In this document: positions 1,661 through 41,299 of the stretch, piece by piece
How positions within the stretch are numbered: position 1 is the stretch's first letter
Layout: every line of letters starts with the position of its first letter
Source of the DNA: Candidatus Moranbacteria bacterium CG_4_9_14_3_um_filter_44_28
GTDB taxonomy: Bacteria; Patescibacteriota; Minisyncoccia; Moranbacterales; UBA11712
Length of the DNA: 49,114 bases
Assembly: GCA_002790655.1 (NCBI GenBank)
Contig: PFVO01000008.1
Coordinates: 1 to 49,114, forward strand
Direction of reading: 5' to 3'
Translations under genes and position numbers: made by a program
The notes under the pieces: generated by a model
Told to the model about the DNA's origin: nothing
The model's database searches: none
Seen by the model: only the letters and a program-made list of their open reading frames with translations

Positions 1661-3073
1661 TCATTTCTTTTCTGAACTTTTCTCCACGCTCTTGGCCTGT
1701 TCCTGTTTTCCACCACTTTTTTTCACCACCAAAACAATTATCAACACCACAATCCCCACGAAAATCAGCCCGCCGACCGCCAGCGCCGCGAAAATTATCC
1801 AGCCCCAGCCGGAAGAGGATTTATTCTCCCCGCGGGCGACTGCTTCCTGAGACTTGGTGATATAGCTTTGCACATCGAGATTGTCCGGATACAAATTTTT
1901 CGCTTTTTCAAATTCCTTGAGGGCGTCGGAATATTCTTTCTGATTGAAAAATTCCAGTCCTTTCGCCCAAGCGGCCGTGGAAAGACTTTGAGCGGTCAGG
2001 TTGACGTTGTTTCTCGAGAGCAGTCTTTTCACTTCGTCAACTGAAATCAAAAAGTTGAATCCCTCCCCGCCCGGCTGGTCGCCCAGACTCCAGGTGGTGA
2101 CGCCGACTACTTCTCCGCCCGTGTCCACCGCCGGCCCGCCGGAATTGCCGTGAGTGATAGCCGCGTCGGTCTGAAAGGCCTCCGTTCCGTCGGTCAGTTT
2201 CTTTTTGGCCGAAATCACGCCCTTAGTCATCGAAGGCTCAAGCTGCGATCCTTCATCGGTTAGTTGTCCCATCAGTTCCTGAACGATTCCCGGATATCCG
2301 ATGGCGTAAACTTCTTTACCAATCTGAATATTTTGGGTGTCGCCTAATTGAATGGTCGGGAAGTTGCTTCCCTCAATTTTCAAGACCGCCAAATCGTTGG
2401 AATCGAATTCGCCTTTGTAAGGCGAATCAATAAACCGGGCCGGTTTTCCGACCTGCTCCACTTTTTTCTGGCTTCCGAAAGCATATCCGGTCTGGATATA
2501 ATTTGATTTTTTGATGTTATCAATCTTCAGCTTCCCGCTCCGGTAGTCCTGATAAAGGTCATCGGCCAGTTTCTGGACATCGCCCCCGTAGGTTGACTGC
2601 AAAGTCTGCTGATAGGCCTGCTCGACGATGTCGGCGGGGGGATTGTAGCCAAGCGTCGCCGCCGCCACCGTGCTCACCGCGTCTTTGAAAATGATCGGCG
2701 CCATATCGGAAAGAGCGTAATAGGCCGTAAGCTGATCATCCGGATTGGCCACGTGCCCGTTTGTCACAAAATACCCGTCGGGGCTTACGAAAAATCCAGA
2801 GCCAGTTGCTCCGATCGTAAAGGGATAACTTTTCCCCGCGAGAGCCGGCGTATTTAGCTCCATCGCCGCCGCGGCCTGGATGATTATTTCTCCCGTGACG
2901 ATGTTGGTCACCTGCACCACGGCCGGCTTGGCAAGAAGCAGGTTTGTCTGTATCGCGTCCGCGCCCGTTGCCGCATTTGACGCGCCAAGACACGCCGCCG
3001 GAGAGAAAGAAATTAAAAATGCCATCAGCAAAACTCCCATTTTTGCCGACAGCTTGGTTTTGAGATGCTTCAT
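1661..3073 (-). CDS. Trypsin-like (S1C/HtrA-type, no PDZ) serine protease with signal peptide, TPR-like segment and C-terminal TM anchor
   Basis: GSGFFVS..TNGHV (His), DLAVLKI (Asp), GNSGGP (Ser). Confidence 0.9.
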   Translation of the reverse strand: MKHLKTKLSAKMGVLLMAFLISFSPAACLGASNAATGADAIQTNLLLAKPAVVQVTNIVTGEIIIQAAAAMELNTPALAGKSYPFTIGATGSGFFVSPDGYFVTNGHVANPDDQLTAYYALSDMAPIIFKDAVSTVAAATLGYNPPADIVEQAYQQTLQSTYGGDVQKLADDLYQDYRSGKLKIDNIKKSNYIQTGYAFGSQKKVEQVGKPARFIDSPYKGEFDSNDLAVLKIEGSNFPTIQLGDTQNIQIGKEVYAIGYPGIVQELMGQLTDEGSQLEPSMTKGVISAKKKLTDGTEAFQTDAAITHGNSGGPAVDTGGEVVGVTTWSLGDQPGGEGFNFLISVDEVKRLLSRNNVNLTAQSLSTAAWAKGLEFFNQKEYSDALKEFEKAKNLYPDNLDVQSYITKSQEAVARGENKSSSGWGWIIFAALAVGGLIFVGIVVLIIVLVVKKSGGKQEQAKSVEKSSEKK

Positions 3074-3298
3074 TTTGTTTTTGTTATTTGATTACCAGTT
3101 TGATTACCAGCCCGAAAGCCTGGTTTTATTATATACCATATCGGGAAATTAGAACAATAGGGAAGAAAAATTGACAAATTTTCAGATTTTTTAGATTTGT
3201 GGTATTATAAAAATAATCCATCCCGCCGCTCGCGAGCAGCAGGATACCTAAATTTTTGATTTTTGATATTTTATATAAACTTAGATCAGGGGTGACTT

Positions 3299-18707: not shown

Positions 18708-19655
18708 ATGAATAACATTCCCTATCTGCTTCTTTGCGACTATGATCTAACCCTCTTTAATACCAAAGACCGCTCCCCCAGAGGGATCGGTCTTGCGGAG
18801 GGTTACGAGTATGCGGTCCTGCAAACTTTTGGACCGCAAGGATTAATTTATTTTCGTGAAGGGGGAGGACTTCACAATCGGGCGTGCAGCGAAGTTGTGG
18901 TTTCACTGGTAAAACGAGATCAAAATCTTCTCAATATTGCGCGTGAAAAACATGCGGAATTAATTTCCTCTTCTCAGGAACTGCTGCGAGTCATTGCGGC
19001 TCCATGGAATGAATCAAACCCGATAGCCACTCTCTCCGAATTGCTGGTTTATCATAAACTCCAGTTATTTCTAGAAGAGATAGGGCTTAACTGGCCTCTA
19101 CCTTATTCCGGAGTATGCGATTTTTTCCAAACTGTTACGAGCTTAAGAGAAAAGGAGGGATTGCCAATTCAGATCGGTATACTAAGTTCGGGACACACCC
19201 CCTTCATTGAAAAGACGCTTTCTCTTTGGAAAATCCCCTACCCGCGGATAATGGTTATGGATGATGACATCCGTTATCTGAAGCATCCAAAGGATCCCCA
19301 GGACAAGGTAAAACCGGCGCCATTCCCATTCAAATTTCTTCAGATCCGTTGGCTGAAACAGTTCAACGGCAATACGCCGGTTAGCCCGGCTCAACTCCGC
19401 GCCAGCCTGCCACGGATTATGTACTTCGGAGATGATCCTCACAAGGACGGAGGACTGGCAAAAAACGTTGGAGTTCTCTTTGGATGGTTCCGCGAGAAGA
19501 ACAAGGATGAAACCGGTGCTTACCCTAACGAACTCCCTGAAAATTTCTTTTCTTTCTCTGATTGGGGCAAGGTCGTTGATTTCCTCGCACGGCGCGACGT
19601 GAAAAAAATGCTGAAAAGCGGCATTCCGCTGGAGGAAATTTTTTCCCATTTTTGA
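18708..19655 (+). CDS. HAD-superfamily hydrolase
   Basis: DYDLT motif I, ILSSG, KP.P, YFGDD..KD; AGGAGG RBS. Confidence 0.8.
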   Translation: MNNIPYLLLCDYDLTLFNTKDRSPRGIGLAEGYEYAVLQTFGPQGLIYFREGGGLHNRACSEVVVSLVKRDQNLLNIAREKHAELISSSQELLRVIAAPWNESNPIATLSELLVYHKLQLFLEEIGLNWPLPYSGVCDFFQTVTSLREKEGLPIQIGILSSGHTPFIEKTLSLWKIPYPRIMVMDDDIRYLKHPKDPQDKVKPAPFPFKFLQIRWLKQFNGNTPVSPAQLRASLPRIMYFGDDPHKDGGLAKNVGVLFGWFREKNKDETGAYPNELPENFFSFSDWGKVVDFLARRDVKKMLKSGIPLEEIFSHF

Positions 19656-19680
19656 GAACAAAGGACGCCCTGCATGAAAA

Positions 19681-19716
19681 AAGGGTGGAATCAACTGGTT
19701 CCACCCTTGTTTTTTT
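19681..19716. terminator. Terminator between convergent genes
   Basis: AAGGGTGGAATC-AACT-GGTTCCACCCTT-GTTTTTTT. Confidence 0.75.
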
Positions 19717-19761
19717 ACCTTTCAAACGCACTACCGCTGAATCCTTTTGGCGCTGGCTTTA

Positions 19762-20457
19762 TTAAGTTTTCATCAGCCGGGGGTATCGCTCTTTCGCCGC
19801 AATTCGCGCCTGGTCCATCAGCGTTCTTTCCTCATCCGTTTCGTACACCCGAGGCACGGGAATGGGCTTAGCTTTCCCGGTTGCCAAAAGATAAAGCCCT
19901 TCGATCTGTACTTCGTGCTCGATCGGCAGCAATCGGCGGGAAATTTCTTCATCTGTTTCATGCTCCTAATAATCTTCGTAGTGGACATAGACGACATCGC
20001 CGTCGTCATAATCCTTGTGGGCATACTGGCAAAAGACAGGAATAGGCCGTTTTTCGCCTATCTTTTTACAGAACCAGAGCTGGGCGTATATTCTCCTCTC
20101 GTAATACATGAATCTTCCGCCGGGACCCAGGTGCTGGTTTAGTCCCTGAAAGCGCTCGGTGACATAATCCGGCGTATAGGGCTCCCAGCCCAACTGATGA
20201 AAATAATCCGGCCTGTAGATGTCCATAATTTCCAGAAGTTGCTGACCAAGGTTATCCCTTTTGCTATTGATGACGTAGATATTCTTTTGCGGAAAACCGG
20301 CATCAATGACTTTTTTTATTCCGCCAGCCATTGGATTACTTGAAATTATAGCCACGGTTTTTACTAATCCATGTAGTTTTCCACCCGGCTTTTGCGCTTC
20401 AAGAATAGCCAGATTTGTAGAACCCCCACCCGAAATTAAATTTACCGTAGTAATCAT
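19762..20457 (-). pseudogene. purN: Divergent GAR formyltransferase with in-frame TAG at 19966-19968
   Basis: LISGGGSTNLAIL, LNQHLG, YDDGDV. Frame continues after TAG as EHETDEEISRRLLPIEH... to TAA at 19762. Confidence 0.75.
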
Positions 20458-20556
20458 ATTTCCTCCAAATCTAATAGGATCTTTTTAAAAGGAGCGACCT
20501 CCTGGCCCCTCCATTTTGCCTGTTATCAAGCTAACAAATACACCGCCCAAAAGCAA

Positions 20557-20585
20557 TTGACAGAAAAAACTATATATGATACTAT
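20557..20585 (+). promoter_or_regulatory. Near-consensus sigma70 promoter
   Basis: TTGACA (20557-20562), 17 bp, TGnTACTAT (extended -10, 20580-20585). Confidence 0.75.
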
Positions 20586-20613
20586 CATCAGCAGTTATCG
20601 AATTAGGCGTATC

Positions 20614-20903
20614 ATCCCTCACCACTTTTACTTTTATGTATTTTATGTGTATCTCATAAAGAATGAGAAAAATGAGATTTACACAGGTTGTACAAGCGAT
20701 CTTAGAAAGAGAATAGCGGAGCATAATAAGAACAGAGTTGCGTACACAAAGCATAAAGGTCTATGGGAAATCAGATACTACGAGGCTTTCTCTTGCAAAT
20801 ACGATGCATTCAAGCGGGAAAAGAGCTTGAAAAGGCACGCGAGAGGAACTCAAGAGTTGAAAGAGCGGCTGGCTGGCAGTCTAAAGTAAAAGTGGTGAGG
20901 GAT
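20614..20903. mobile_element. GIY-YIG cassette bounded by perfect 21-bp inverted repeats
   Basis: ATCCCTCACCACTTTTACTTT (20614-20634) / AAAGTAAAAGTGGTGAGGGAT (20883-20903). Confidence 0.7.
20647..20889 (+). CDS. Stand-alone GIY-YIG nuclease (start uncertain)
   Basis: YVYLI..IYTGCTSDLRKRIAEHN..YT..W..YYEAF..DA.KRE..LK. ATG at 20636 is one base out of frame; GTG at 20647 is in frame. Confidence 0.88.
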   Translation: MYLIKNEKNEIYTGCTSDLRKRIAEHNKNRVAYTKHKGLWEIRYYEAFSCKYDAFKREKSLKRHARGTQELKERLAGSLK

Positions 20904-20983
20904 AAAATAAAGTCGTTCGCCTAAGTGAGAACTATCTTGAGCCGAAAGGCCCGGGATTATTAACAAGTTAGGCGAAACGAGAA

Positions 20984-21211
20984 ATGGATTATCAAAACAG
21001 ACCCCAGCGCCAGATGCACGACGTGTCTGCTCTGGGACTCAAGTGCGAGGAATGCGGCGCCGAAATCAAAGAGCTTCCGTTCGAGCCCACCAAGCGCGAC
21101 GACGGAACCTACGGCCGGCTTTACTGTCAGCCTTGCAACCGCAACCGGCGCAAAAGCTTCGGCGGCGGCGACAGAGGCGGATTCGGCGGCGGTCGAAGAG
21201 ACCGATACTGA
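20984..21211 (+). CDS. Small zinc-binding CxxC-x17-CxxC-like protein with RGG-type tail
   Basis: RQMH..CEECG..LPFEP..LYCQPC; GGGDRGGFGGGRR. Confidence 0.82.
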   Translation: MDYQNRPQRQMHDVSALGLKCEECGAEIKELPFEPTKRDDGTYGRLYCQPCNRNRRKSFGGGDRGGFGGGRRDRY

Positions 21212-21221
21212 ACCGAATCGC

Positions 21222-21255
21222 AAAACAACCCCGACACAACGTCGGGGTTGTTTTT
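21222..21255 (+). terminator. Intrinsic terminator
   Basis: AAAACAACCCCGAC-ACAAC-GTCGGGGTTGTTTTT. Confidence 0.85.
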
Positions 21256-21290
21256 GTTATTTCAACTGCTAATGTTACAATAACACCTGG

Positions 21291-22088
21291 ATGCGAAAAG
21301 GATACAAAAAACTGCTCGTAATCCTTCTGACAGCCGCCGTGTTGCTGGCGGGATATTTCCTCTTTTTCTGGAAAAAGCTGGCCTCGGAACCCCCGAAGCC
21401 AACTGCCCAAAATAACCAGATCGCCCAGAATCAAAAAGGAGAAGCGAAAAACTCCGAAACGGAAAACCAGACGGAGGAAAAGAAAACCGAGCCAGCCGAA
21501 GAAAAACCCGCTCCCAATATCCCCGAAAAATTTCTTCTCGAAATTCCCTTCTATTCCCAGACTCCGCTTTCCAAATGGGACGCTTTTCACGAGGAAATGT
21601 GCGAGGAAGCCTCGGTCCTGAACGCCGGCCTGTATCTTGCCGGCAAAAAACTGACCAAAGAAGAATTTGAAGCCGAGCTTCAGAAAATGCAAAAAACCGA
21701 AAAAAAAGAAATCGGCGAGTGGAAAAGCACGACTATCACCCAGATAAAAAAACTAGTTGATGTATATTTTGATGGAGCGATAAAAAGCAAAATTGTCGAT
21801 AATCCTTCAATCGAAGATATTGAAACGGAAATCTCTGCCGGAAATCCGGTGATTATTCCTCTTTCCGGCCGCGACATCGGAAACCCGAACTTTACTCCCC
21901 CGGGACCGGTCTATCACATGCTGGTCATCAAAGGCTATGATTCGCAAAACTTTATCACCAACGACGTCGGCACGAGAAAAGGAAATTCATACGTTTACAA
22001 AAAAGAAGTGCTTATGAAAAATATGCATGATTGGAACAAGAAAAATATACATGCGGGAGGCAAAAGAATTTTAGTGCTTACAAAATGA
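21291..22088 (+). CDS. Membrane-anchored peptidase C39-like protein
   Basis: IPFYSQ.P..W..CEEAS, GNPVI, HMLVIKGYD, ITND. Confidence 0.82.
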   Translation: MRKGYKKLLVILLTAAVLLAGYFLFFWKKLASEPPKPTAQNNQIAQNQKGEAKNSETENQTEEKKTEPAEEKPAPNIPEKFLLEIPFYSQTPLSKWDAFHEEMCEEASVLNAGLYLAGKKLTKEEFEAELQKMQKTEKKEIGEWKSTTITQIKKLVDVYFDGAIKSKIVDNPSIEDIETEISAGNPVIIPLSGRDIGNPNFTPPGPVYHMLVIKGYDSQNFITNDVGTRKGNSYVYKKEVLMKNMHDWNKKNIHAGGKRILVLTK

Positions 22089-22186
22089 CTAATTTCTATT
22101 AGAAATTGGATATTGGATATTCTAAAACTTGCCGTTTTGCCAAATCTGCTATAATATAACTAAAGCCATAACCAAAAAACTATTTT

Positions 22187-23188
22187 ATGTACTGTTTAGT
22201 TGACTTCAGAAACCGTCCTCAACTTCAATATACTTTCCGATCCCGCGGAAAAGCCCGCGAGTATCTCGGGAAAATAAAAAACAATCCTTTGGGAGTAACT
22301 GCCATTTATCCCGACGGCCGGCGGGAGTATTTTGAACAGGGCCTGCCCAACGGGTTTCTCCGGCACTGCGACAAGAGCGCCCAAATAAAAAAGGGCTGTC
22401 ACGCGAAATACAAAATCCGGGAACTCAATACCATTGACGGATTAAGAAGGAACGCGAGCACCCCGGAAAGCGCAAATCTTGGAAACTGGAGAGGAAAATC
22501 CGTTTTTTCTCTTTTTATGCTGGGGAATAAAAAAGTTTACGCGGGGCTGGCAATCGTTTCACTCATCGTATTTTCCTCTTCCTGGTATTTTCAAAATCAA
22601 TACGGAGAGAACGCCATTGCCCAGTCAGAAAACGCGGGAAATGAAACCTCCGGCCGGGTTGCCGGCGCGGCTGACGAGAAAATCGGGAATTCCGAAGAAC
22701 CGGCCGATTCGCTTCAGCTTGCCGACGAAGAAATCATTATGAGTCTTCTCGGAAAAATCGAGGAGGCAAAACAAGGAGAGTTTGAAACCGAAATTCTGCG
22801 CTACATCAAAGGCCGGCCGATGGAAAAAATGGCGCCCTATATCGCCAAACAGCCGAGAATCGTCGCCGCTTTCATTGTCGGAATTGCCATGAAGGAAAGC
22901 AAGTTTGGTCTTTACGCCCCGCACAGCGGCGGGCGGGATTGCTATAACTACTGGGGCTATAAAGGCCGGGAAAACACGACTGCTTCCGGATATTCCTGTT
23001 TCAATTCACCCGAGCATGCCATTCAGGTGGTCGGGAAAAAGATCAATTCTCTTGTCGCCCGGGGAATATCAAATCCGGCCCAGATGATCAGCTGGAAATG
23101 CGGCTCGACCTGCTCGTGGGACAACCCCGAAAACGTGCGCAAATGGATCGCGGACGTGGGAATTTATTTTCACAAGATAAACTCATAA
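22187..23188 (+). CDS. Membrane-anchored protein with C-terminal lysozyme-like domain (paralog 1)
   Basis: One TM helix; IVGIAMKESKFG..NYWGY..GYSCF.S. Confidence 0.65.
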   Translation: MYCLVDFRNRPQLQYTFRSRGKAREYLGKIKNNPLGVTAIYPDGRREYFEQGLPNGFLRHCDKSAQIKKGCHAKYKIRELNTIDGLRRNASTPESANLGNWRGKSVFSLFMLGNKKVYAGLAIVSLIVFSSSWYFQNQYGENAIAQSENAGNETSGRVAGAADEKIGNSEEPADSLQLADEEIIMSLLGKIEEAKQGEFETEILRYIKGRPMEKMAPYIAKQPRIVAAFIVGIAMKESKFGLYAPHSGGRDCYNYWGYKGRENTTASGYSCFNSPEHAIQVVGKKINSLVARGISNPAQMISWKCGSTCSWDNPENVRKWIADVGIYFHKINS

Positions 23189-30739: not shown

Positions 30740-30824
30740 CGGAAGGGGAGGGAGTCGAACCCTCGATACCTTGCGGTATACCCGCTTTCCAAGCGAGCGC
30801 ACTAGGCCACTATGCGACCCTTCC
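30740..30824 (-). tRNA. tRNA-Ser(GGA), CCA not encoded
   Basis: GGAAGGG acceptor stem, anticodon arm CTCGC-TTGGAAA-GCGGG, long variable arm, GGTTCGACT T-loop. Confidence 0.95.
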
Positions 30825-41230: not shown

Positions 41231-41299
41231 TTGTCATCCCTGCGAAAGCAGGGATCCAGAAAATTAATTGCTAGATTCCCGCTTTCGCGGGAATGACAA
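41231..41299. repeat. REP-like doublet of opposed palindromes
   Basis: TTGTCATCCCTGCGAAAGCAGGGATCCAG ... CTAGATTCCCGCTTTCGCGGGAATGACAA. Confidence 0.88.

Follow-up and report, generated by a model that had tools for sequence, protein, structure and literature searches.

A GIY-YIG nuclease gene enclosed in the loop of its own hairpin within an mRNA leader of a Moranbacteria genome: a candidate minimal selfish element

The window analysed here, meaning the whole stretch of DNA under study, comprises 49,114 nucleotides of contig PFVO01000008.1 from Candidatus Moranbacteria bacterium CG_4_9_14_3_um_filter_44_28. It contains a short transcription unit in which a promoter-like site, a leader with mutually complementary segments, a gene for a small zinc-ribbon protein and a terminator-like hairpin follow one another, and a long hairpin carrying a nuclease gene in its loop is inserted into the leader. 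The features, all on the + strand, are as follows.

20557..20585, +, promoter-like site (TTGACA, 17 nt, TACTAT) that would start the leader transcript; TTGACA...TAnnAT stands at the equivalent place in orthologous loci
20603..20609, +, leader segment X1 (TTAGGCG), a candidate anti-anti-Shine-Dalgarno, invariant in 12 aligned empty leaders
20614..20903, +, the complete element, in which the two hairpin arms enclose the GIY-YIG gene as their loop and which substitutes for a native leader hairpin of about 30 nt
20614..20634, +, left arm of the 21-nt inverted repeat (repeat search), its core identical in the copies of genomes G009 and G017
20636..20638, +, ATG start of the nuclease, out of frame in the window allele and in frame in G009, in G017 and in contigs of runs X15 and X22
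20641..20644, +, T run with a 2-nt insertion that breaks the frame, T4 here and T2 in the intact allele (run contigs)
20647..20889, +, GIY-YIG frame of 80 codons that runs from the first in-frame GTG to TAA and keeps the catalytic residues Y, Y, G, R, H and E
20883..20903, +, right arm of the repeat, in which the final two codons and the stop of the nuclease lie
20918..20924, +, leader segment anti-X (CGCCTAA), the complement of X1 as well as of X2 (sequence, fold and covariation)
20925..20967, +, inner leader hairpin between anti-X and X2, four pairs of which have compensatory changes among 12 leaders
20968..20974, +, leader segment X2 (TTAGGCG), at the Shine-Dalgarno position 9 nt before the start codon (sequence and fold)
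20984..21211, +, host gene encoding a zinc-ribbon protein (CxxC...CxxC) of 75 aa whose tail is rich in Gly and Arg; identity across the family is 72-88%
21222..21254, +, terminator-like hairpin closing the transcription unit (repeat and signal search)

The GIY-YIG reading frame enclosed in a hairpin of its own is a confirmed, real feature of this locus. The two arms, 248 nt apart, form a perfect inverted repeat with 100% complementarity, and the resulting 21-bp stem is present in both the minimum-energy and the centroid RNA folds (z = -5.9). A search of the 794-kb genome for the 21-mer, allowing up to three mismatches, returned both arms and one further hairpin and nothing else, with 0 matches for the reversed control; because the sequence is restricted to so few sites, the repeat is not a product of chance. 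Across 20614-20889, the in-frame ORF matches the Pfam family GIY-YIG (PF01541) with an E-value of 2.5e-15 and 57 bits against a cut-off of 22.6, and the residues Y, Y, G, R, H and E are invariant in protein alignment A1. The intact protein consists of 83-90 amino acids and one Pfam domain, the catalytic domain alone, with no DNA-binding domain found by Pfam in the 83-aa nuclease. Its stop codon, TAA at 20887-20889, lies within the right arm, a single base separates the end of the left arm from the ATG, and no Shine-Dalgarno sequence was seen by eye upstream of that ATG in the window. The nuclease is the sole ORF of the element, in which no transposase of a known class (DDE, HUH, serine or tyrosine recombinase) was found, and a target-site duplication is absent at the window copy. 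No intron family was detected at the element at Rfam gathering scores, the only match in the window being one tRNA, and matches with E up to 10 within 20400-21300 were at chance level; the 34 related loci likewise yielded no intron family at gathering scores. The original prediction had described a perfect 21-bp inverted repeat around one nuclease ORF, the left repeat abutting the start and the right one holding the stop, with no transposase, intron core or clear target duplication, and all of this is borne out.

The window carries a fresh frameshift allele of the nuclease gene. Two T letters at 20641 are present in contigs of runs X1 and X14 and missing from those of X15 and X22 (two of the four runs), and without them the frame is restored and the start reads MYYVYLIK, as it also does in the G009 and G017 copies. 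The ATG had correctly been predicted to be out of frame, but the proposed cause, a 1-nt loss or a GTG start, is replaced by a polymorphic 2-nt gain in the T run. Another frameshift, at the 3' end, is found in a near-identical metagenome copy. An empty allele was not seen in the contigs of the four runs, which hold no corresponding joints and from which rare variants are dropped.

The leader itself, which precedes the gene of a conserved small zinc-ribbon protein, is a candidate three-part switch that is so far unannotated, and the empty leaders match no Rfam family. In nine of nine loci of other bacterial families, X1 has changed in concert to GGTGA, the X2 segment there being the GGTGA within agaGGTGA. 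In the minimum-energy fold of the window leader, the CGCCUAA flanking the element pairs with its downstream partner copy rather than with the upstream one, so the leader helix that had been expected to rejoin around the insert would be only one of two alternative states; the accompanying expectation, that the repeats loop the insert out, agrees with the stem that closes it within the leader. A separate candidate role for the arms, as a Shine-Dalgarno/anti-Shine-Dalgarno pair, was rejected: the 16S 3' end of the family reads GGATCACCTCCTTTCT, and the right arm offers matches of only 4-5 nt at long spacing.

Of 61 relatives, 26 yielded the zinc-ribbon gene, and three of these 26 orthologous loci carry a GIY-YIG gene. 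Within the window's own bacterial family, 17 leaders could be compared, including 12 with the native short hairpin, three with this element and two with a gene-less hairpin of another type. The junctions of the three filled leaders (window, G009 and G017) are identical, and genomes G016 and G018, whose sites are empty and retain the native hairpin, belong to the same genus as G009 and G017. These comparisons show that filled and empty alleles coexist among close relatives; a search for empty alleles of the leader in related genomes had been suggested at the outset, and they are found even within a carrier genus. The arms of the window and G017 copies agree at 40 of their 42 bases, and the one difference between them is a compensatory change. 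The three leader copies have diverged as much as the zinc-ribbon host gene. Given their common junctions and this host-like divergence, a single old insertion followed by loss, or replacement through recombination, fits this locus as well as repeated homing.

Enclosure of the gene from start to stop recurs across the nuclease family. A start-stop repeat score of at least 12 was reached by 33 of 53 unique related genes from genome loci, the arms of clamped genes measuring 12-25 bp, against a shuffle null with a mean of 6.1 and a maximum of 11 (n = 318). Shuffles were used in place of a cross-locus null, in which 29 of 400 reach 12, because related elements have arms in common and thereby contaminate it. 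Among full-length genes on metagenome contigs, the repeat was present in 19 of 22, three of those being duplicates of earlier loci; five of the 27 metagenome loci had been dropped for a profile match shorter than 60 positions. Two scans of related loci used the narrower alignment A2 and reach only close type-A relatives. On the nuclease tree, which cuts across host families, 24 type-A rows fall into one clade of 26 (support 96/95), and arm types B and C are likewise clustered, with 0 of 500 shuffles scoring as low. These results show that a large nuclease clade in this order (Moranbacteria-like CPR) inherits the clamp from start to stop codon as a trait, and that the arm sequence tracks the nuclease clade. 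It had also been proposed that homologs at unrelated loci be checked for flanking repeats, and the same start-to-stop type was found there, including in helix 6 of 16S rRNA.

The ATG follows the left arm by 0-5 nt in most type-A and type-B copies, and by up to 24 nt in other types, and in IR-bearing copies the stop codon lies within or adjoins the right arm. Synonymous sites differ at 83% between the window and G017 genes, with a dN of 0.09, and the nuclease protein has been under strong purifying selection, with dN/dS far below 1, over a long time. Mismatches in the stems comprise 11 of the G.U type, 11 of the A.C type and two others, giving no sign of selection on the sense RNA, in a count that includes the row of locus L002 and several mismatches situated in a loosely paired outer extension. 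Profile matches (E <= 1e-12), about 1000 in total, occur in 272 of the order's 319 genomes, with up to 14 family copies per genome of about 1 Mb, several of them broken.

Copies of the element occupy a range of sites. They were found within the 16S rRNA gene in G001, G023 and one metagenome contig, where Infernal aligned the arms as helix 6 with a 285-nt loop. At the helix-6 spot, six 16S genes of the family have 22-25 nt, compared with 315 and 317 nt in carriers (the 16S of G007, locus L102, was left out of this comparison, as it did not match the anchors), and helix 6 holds the insert in G001 but lacks it in G011 of the same genus. Other sites include tRNA 5' flanks, accompanied by a partial tRNA duplicate, and the atpD-atpC spacer. 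A co-oriented ORF begins within 35 nt of 19 of 48 elements, compared with five of 48 in the mirrored control; this set leaves out L002, whose score of 12 stems from TTGTCAT-type flanking hairpins. Co-orientation with neighbours, assessed with crude ORFs of at least 100 aa that include shadow ORFs, was 23 same to 8 opposite upstream and 21 to 6 downstream, near ordinary operon bias. Direct duplicates at other copies measure 11, 22 and about 57 nt, a variation that no single cut-and-paste scheme fits. Overall, the copies lie at many unrelated sites, typically in transcribed, structured RNA contexts.

Additionally, termini of the element type are common to the gene-bearing copy and to short gene-less copies at unrelated loci. 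The window's own genome has seven paired TCCCTCACC...GGTGAGGGA units, one with the gene and six without; unpaired 9-mers of the mini termini number six in the same genome, near the chance number. Such minis are present in seven of 19 family genomes (six in the window's genome, and one to nine in each of the other six), with 0 in the reversed control. Two of the six fall within ORFs, of 499 and 827 aa, whose reading frames continue uninterrupted across the mini. G009 has the gene and no minis, and G001 has four minis and no type-A gene.

Several known systems share parts of this design. Chenal et al. (2025, PMC11893778) describe the Ssn family (cd10448) in their main text as single-domain, site-specific GIY-YIG ssDNA nucleases with NTS/SRM hairpin repeats, and liken the arrangement NTS-ssnA-NTS to an insertion sequence; the identity of the loop is dispensable there, and cutting still takes place when the stem is divided between two oligonucleotides. 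As presented in that text, Ssn systems resemble the element in their stand-alone GIY-YIG protein of less than 150 aa without a DNA-binding domain, the hairpin-forming repeats that bracket the gene, the many genomic copies of the cognate hairpin and the co-variation of nuclease and hairpin. Unlike Ssn, which has two hairpins, the present element has one, with the gene as its loop and the arms before the ATG and over the stop, and its insertions replace hairpins of structured RNAs. GIY-YIG ORFs in CPR 16S rRNA insertions that match no intron model were reported in 2024 in PMC11270868, which cites Brown et al. 2015 and whose main text doubts classical homing. The organism group and the kind of ORF in non-intron 16S insertions are the same as here; relative to that main text, the clamp, the non-rRNA sites (mRNA leader, tRNA flanks and gene fronts), the minis and the link to Ssn are new. 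The main text of PMC11270868 contains the term "inverted repeat" 0 times; that of PMC11893778 uses it once, for SRMs of 20-50 nt. In the main texts of the literature searched, whose supplements may list cases, no GIY-YIG gene enclosed from start to stop by one hairpin was found.

RNase III-cut intervening sequences (IVS) of rRNA are situated in helices 25 and 45 of 23S rRNA and also occur in 16S rRNA. Like them, the element places an extended stem where a terminal helix stood and is sporadic among relatives. To our knowledge, however, classical IVS contain at most a small non-nuclease ORF, whereas the element bears a nuclease ORF and its removal from RNA is putative. With the GIY-YIG homing endonucleases I-TevI and Seg it shares the catalytic core and presence or absence at a conserved site, but the nuclease is not modular (catalytic domain, linker and DNA-binding domain), having neither a DNA-binding domain nor an intron, and it scores 19.5 bits against a cut-off of 56 for the NCBIfam model grpIintron_endo (TIGR01453). 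Hairpin ends, single-strand logic and a master gene with short derivatives characterise IS200/IS605 with REP/RAYT, MITE-like palindromes and the Rickettsia palindromic elements. Hairpin ends and a master gene with many short hairpin derivatives are likewise found here, along with a putative single-strand logic, and some minis lie in frame within host proteins, as in Rickettsia palindromes, but the enzyme is a GIY-YIG hydrolase and not an HUH transposase, and we know of no covalent joining activity for a GIY-YIG hydrolase.

Considered together, these observations probably describe a minimal selfish element, in which the gene of a small single-domain GIY-YIG nuclease lies in the loop of its own long hairpin and replaces the terminal hairpin of the leader. 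A candidate small selfish nuclease element was what the original prediction had proposed, and the empty alleles and the clamped homologs at unrelated loci support it. The arms would be the recognition hairpin of the nuclease itself, corresponding to the hairpin repeats on either side of Ssn-type GIY-YIG ssDNA nucleases but divided into two halves. The nuclease would act on a folded single DNA strand and cause the cassette, and the minis in trans, to be copied to new hairpin sites. Since the insert closes on itself as a helix of 18-25 bp, the host RNA (the leader or 16S helix 6) would be expected to keep its fold and tolerate it, and a double-strand RNase may cut the insert out at the stem. With the stem directly beside the ATG and over the stop codon, translation of the nuclease is expected to be held low. 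Several points count against this reading: the published SRM motif has no match at or beside the element, the stem mismatches give no sign of selection on the sense RNA, the flanking duplicates vary in length, gene and minis do not always occur together, the shared junctions of the three leader copies fit one old insertion equally, and, as far as we know, a hydrolytic GIY-YIG nuclease cannot join DNA alone. An extension of the selfish-element reading is put forward tentatively, as possible but doubtful: a new minimal transposable unit, in which an ssDNA nuclease is encoded inside the loop formed by the hairpin it recognises, and cassette and minis are copied into other hairpins, replacing them, through host replication or repair.

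Three other explanations account for part of the evidence. The repeat could be purely an RNA-level intervening sequence, with RNase III cutting the duplex and removing the ORF, while spread proceeds by ordinary homing and the nuclease never touches the hairpin. Both in the leader and in 16S helix 6, a terminal hairpin has given way to stems of 18-25 perfect pairs, the sites are highly conserved RNA genes that would offer flank homology for homing, and members of different genera and families have the same site filled; furthermore, the main text of PMC11270868 reports that CPR rRNA insertions are removed from transcripts and that those with GIY-YIG ORFs are not introns. Such an arrangement requires pairing rather than a particular sequence, yet the arms are conserved far beyond synonymous sites and follow the nuclease clade, G.U pairs are not in excess over A.C among the stem mismatches, and gene-less minis with the same termini stand at unrelated places, even within protein-coding frames. 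An 83-aa single-domain protein also lacks a DNA-binding domain for sequence-specific homing, and this explanation is considered unlikely.

That the stem serves mainly as a translational clamp, inhibiting a toxic nuclease by fold-back, with the gene domesticated or neutral and its scatter the result of old duplications and losses, is very improbable. It accords with the short distance from arm to ATG in most type-A and type-B copies, the stop in or beside the right arm of IR-bearing copies, the Shine-Dalgarno sequence not seen by eye before the window's ATG and a dN/dS far below 1 for a long time, but it leaves unexplained the gene-less minis, the replaced native hairpins in the leader and 16S, the filled/empty polymorphism inside a genus, the copy numbers of up to 14 per genome of about 1 Mb, several of them broken, and a nuclease tree that crosses host families. 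Least credible of all is a repeat belonging to the target, the gene having been inserted into the loops of pre-existing host hairpins. Although the insertion points are hairpin tips (the leader hairpin and helix 6) and the Infernal alignment with the 16S model puts the arms on the stem of helix 6, native hairpins at empty sites share no sequence with the arms, which contradicts it; the right arm extends over the final codons and the stop, and arms of the same sequence turn up both in minis and at unrelated loci.

The selfish hairpin element, as described above, ties together Ssn-type hairpin-associated nucleases, non-intron GIY-YIG insertions in CPR rRNA and in-frame palindromic mini-elements. 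The exchange of one hairpin for another would be a concrete reason why it can live in essential structured RNAs. Through its abundance the family shapes these tiny genomes, and its 300-nt inserts in V1 affect surveys based on 16S. Each nuclease clade with its own arm sequence constitutes a candidate enzyme/site pair for new ssDNA cleavage specificities. The transposable-unit reading, if true, would explain the non-intron GIY-YIG insertions of CPR rRNA, the hairpin repeats of the NTS/SRM type and the in-frame palindromic elements together.

Among solved structures, the chains nearest to the element nuclease are UPF0213 BH0048 (E 3e-14) and EF2693 (1e-7), followed by SLX1. The published SRM motif has six matches in the window's genome, compared with 0-4 in ten shuffles, and none within 19000-23000 of the contig. 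The element nuclease is 38% identical (E 2.3e-8) to an SRM-flanked paralogue in the same genome. NTS-like copies are also present in this genome, as is a second GIY-YIG gene that has hairpins of the TTGTCAT type on its flanks.

The element at 20614-20903 is a hairpin-bounded, multi-copy nuclease cassette, which is present/absent polymorphic and has gene-less derivatives. The central idea of the original prediction, a small selfish nuclease element that hides in RNA loops, holds, and the element is confirmed as real. A repeat search of the window and a Pfam match bear out its anatomy: the inverted repeat consists of two 21-nt arms (20614-20634 and 20883-20903), 100% complementary and spaced 248 nt apart, the open frame 20614-20889 matches GIY-YIG (E 2.5e-15), and the stop codon TAA (20887-20889) lies inside the right arm, as predicted. 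An ATG (20636-20638) stands one base after the left arm and is out of frame in the window allele. No intron or other Rfam family is found at the element locus, in agreement with the predicted absence of an intron core. The surrounding features are as follows:

20557-20585: promoter-like site (TTGACA, 17 nt, TACTAT)
20984-21211: gene of a 75-aa CxxC...CxxC zinc-ribbon protein
21222-21254: terminator-like hairpin, 3' of the zinc-ribbon gene

The zinc-ribbon protein is present in 26 of 61 related genomes, among them 16 of the 18 further members of the family (identity 72-88%), and by tblastn a GIY-YIG gene lies 5' of it at only three of the 26 loci, those of the window's genome, G009 and G017. 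All 17 same-family loci have in common a promoter, then a segment with TTAGGCG at its end, the variable hairpin and AAAGTCG(T)TCGCCTAAG, and, in the 3' part, another hairpin followed by another TTAGGCG, 8-14 nt ahead of the ATG. The variable hairpin is native and about 30 nt long (GTATCC...GGnATAC) at 12 of these loci, is replaced by the nuclease element with identical junctions at three, and is a gene-less insert of about 100 nt at two (L010 in G006 and L013 in G004). Since the arms of this insert (ACCCTGTTAAAT / ATTTAACAGGGT) equal those of L044, a type-B-like GIY-YIG element, the leader hairpin is a recurrent landing site. Empty alleles of the leader, sought among relatives as a check on the insertion, were found in the 12 native hairpins, which include those of G016 and G018, of the same genus as the filled G009 and G017.

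Judged from its sequence, the unannotated zinc-ribbon leader (window 20586-20986, loci L007-L031) looks like a translational switch of three mutually complementary segments. Within the family these are TTAGGCG, CGCCTAA (anti-X) and TTAGGCG (X2), with X2 at the Shine-Dalgarno (SD) position; at nine of nine loci from other families they are GGTGA, TCACC and GGTGA, the last within agaGGTGA before the ATG. Because all three segments have changed in concert, they would constitute an anti-anti-SD, anti-SD and SD switch. In the 12 empty leaders RNAalifold retains the anti-X:X2 helix, with four compensatory pairs in the inner hairpin. The predicted fold of the window transcript includes the 21-bp stem, in the minimum-energy structure as well as in the centroid (z = -5.9), with CGCCUAA paired with the downstream TTAGGCG. 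No Rfam family matches this leader; at gathering score, Rfam matches nothing in the window except a tRNA (30740-30824, minus strand, 51.7 bits).

The element replaces terminal hairpins of structured RNAs. Elements are present in 16S rRNA at L036 (G001) and at L093 (G023, a genome of another family), and the metagenome contig L122, whose 16S flanks were recognised by eye, is presumably a third case. Infernal aligns both arms to a 16S helix at model positions of about 62-99, with a loop of 285 nt, and the same anchors enclose 22-25 nt in six family genes, as a short hairpin of unrelated sequence, versus 315 and 317 nt in the two carriers. In G011, which shares its genus with G001, the site is empty. 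The element's own hairpin has replaced the native hairpin in 16S, as in the leader.

Further sites adjoin tRNA and protein genes. Each of two GIY-YIG genes at L096 in G218 (1500-1838 and 2854-3159) terminates at the first bases of a tRNA gene, the stop codon of the second being a TGA within the tRNA 5' end, and partial tRNA 5'-end duplicates of 11 nt and 22 nt lie one upstream of each gene. The type-B elements L037 (G003) and L049 (G006) occupy the 3' end of a protein gene, with the host ORF now stopping within the left arm and a diverged duplicate, about 57 nt long, of the upstream gene's original 3' end following the element. L044 fills the spacer between two ORFs that, by eye, we take to be atpD and atpC. 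Flanking duplications differ in length among copies. A co-oriented ORF starts within 35 nt past the stop in 19 of 48 unique clamped elements (those with an inverted repeat running from start to stop), versus 5 in the mirrored control.

Small GIY-YIG genes are abundant in 19 family genomes (up to 9 per genome, some with in-frame stops), and at the order level a profile built from ten clamped genes matches in 272 of 319 genomes at E <= 1e-12, with about 1000 matches and up to 14 per genome. The clamp was scored for every unique gene in related loci as the best ungapped complementarity between positions -60 to +6 around the start and -30 to +45 around the stop, with a threshold of 12; shuffling gave a mean of 6.1 and a maximum of 11 (n=318). 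The anticipated homologs with flanking inverted repeats at unrelated loci do exist, with scores of at least 12 in 33 of 53 unique genes from genome loci and in 19 of 22 full-length genes from metagenome contigs, among which 19 are three duplicates of earlier loci; 5 of 27 metagenome loci, with partial matches, were dropped. L002, one of the 33, has a TTGTCAT-type repeat and was later left out on that account. In most type-A and type-B copies 0-5 nt separate the left arm from the ATG, in other copies up to 24 nt, and the right arm spans the last codons and the stop. Arm types beyond the following three also occur:

Type A arm: (TTC)ATCCC[CT][CT]ACCAC...
Type B arm: ...ACCCCGTTAGAGACAG; protein C-terminus LTG
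Type C arm: ..GCCACACC...

The arms co-vary with the nuclease clade. In a maximum-likelihood tree of 72 proteins, a single clade of 26 (support 96/95) holds 24 type-A rows; the remaining two are L113, which has a type-A arm with one mismatch, and L074, whose left arm is lost and which is preceded by two solo right-arm-like copies. On the tree, types B and C likewise form clusters (0 of 500 shuffles as low), and unclamped genes form long separate branches. The nuclease protein is under selection: the three leader copies have a dN of 0.08-0.09 and saturated synonymous differences of 58-83%, which indicates long-lasting, strong purifying selection. Over the same divergence the arms have one differing pair, which is compensatory (ATCCC../..GGGAT versus ACCCC../..GGGGT), and the outer arm core is kept as TCCC[CT][CT]ACC throughout the type-A clade, whose proteins are 55-65% identical. 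Since the arm sequence is kept, and not pairing alone, the pattern points to a factor recognising the arms, for which the encoded nuclease is the simplest candidate. Stem mismatches (11 G.U-type, 11 A.C-type, 2 other) speak neither for nor against selection on the sense RNA.

The window's genome, G000 (assembly of 794 kb in 48 contigs), contains seven paired TCCCTCACC...GGTGAGGGA units, one being the 288-nt element and six being gene-less hairpins, or minis, of 53-104 nt; its six unpaired 9-mers are about the chance number. Of the 19 family genomes, 7 contain the paired pattern with a loop of 20-120 nt (6 in G000, 9 in G017, 6 in G006, 4 in G001 and 1 in each of three others), and the reversed-pattern control gave 0 in all 19. 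Two of the six are contained in ORFs of 499 and 827 aa whose frames run open through the mini, and they encode SLT...VRD peptides; judging by eye, the hosts are presumably GatB and an aminoacyl-tRNA synthetase. A third mini lies within a doubtful 123-aa frame.

G000 C12:49938-49990: in-frame mini
G000 C32:24347-24444: in-frame mini

Because G009 has the gene without a mini and G001 has minis without a type-A gene, the association of the minis with the gene is loose, as with MITEs. At L074 (G294), L067, L114 and L121, solo arm copies or tiny type-A-ended hairpins lie directly 5' of full elements, which suggests nested or tandem insertions.

Two known systems resemble this arrangement. GIY-YIG proteins are described in CPR rRNA insertions, each in an insertion matching no intron model; they seemingly were not spread by homing, and such insertions are removed from transcripts (PMC11270868, the last point citing Brown et al.). 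The term 'inverted repeat' is absent from the main text of that paper. The Ssn family comprises single-domain, ssDNA-specific and site-specific GIY-YIG nucleases, whose genes have hairpin repeats of 20-50 nt (NTS/SRM) on either side, a layout the authors compare to an IS; cleavage does not require the hairpin loop and also takes place when the stem is divided between two oligonucleotides (PMC11893778). NTS-like copies occur in the window's genome, one of which, TGTCATTCCCGCGAAAGCGGGAATCTAG on the minus strand of the window (about 41270-41298), agrees almost perfectly with the Neisseria NTS consensus given in PMC11893778. A loose TGTCAT-start pattern has 102 matches in this genome, dozens of them hairpins of the form TTGTCAT[CT]CCGA...TCGAGGGATCT, which often converge in pairs with a spacing of about 125 nt. 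The second GIY-YIG gene, L002 (G000 C14:8236-8442), has TTGTCAT-type hairpins on both sides, the classical Ssn-like layout, its protein being 38% identical to the window nuclease. The published SRM motif has no match at the element. The solved chains nearest to the window nuclease are UPF0213 proteins (3e-14, 1e-7), then SLX1, and the nuclease falls far below the cut-off of the NCBIfam intron-endonuclease model.

The element is a variation on Ssn-type nuclease/hairpin modules and CPR rRNA GIY-YIG insertions, not a separate category; the gene-in-hairpin architecture and the link between these two systems were found neither in literature searches nor in the main texts of PMC11270868 and PMC11893778. 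The arms would be the nuclease's cognate hairpin on single-stranded DNA, as in an Ssn/SRM module whose gene has moved into the loop. The self-closing stem would render insertion into RNA helices harmless, would restrain translation of the nuclease, and could serve as a site for RNase III.

The window allele is freshly broken. Its out-of-frame ATG had been attributed to a 1-nt loss or a GTG start; the cause is instead two extra T at 20641, shared by contigs of sequencing runs X1 and X14 and absent from those of X15 and X22, in which ATG TAT TAT GTG... (MYYVYLIK) is restored. The ATG is in frame in the G009 and G017 copies. The near-identical copy that metagenome contig L109 carries in the same leader keeps its start intact and its arms perfect, but a frameshift near its 3' end leads to a premature stop, so this lineage has suffered a second lesion independent of the first. 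No empty allele occurs in the contigs of the four runs. Farther upstream, at 20493-20554, contigs of three runs end, with loose ends at 20502, and the summed depth jumps (e.g., 141 versus 66 in X14). The segment there, around CCTCCTGGCCCCTCC, recurs 5' of the promoter in several orthologous loci; it may be repetitive, or else a conserved part of the divergent formyltransferase-like gene.
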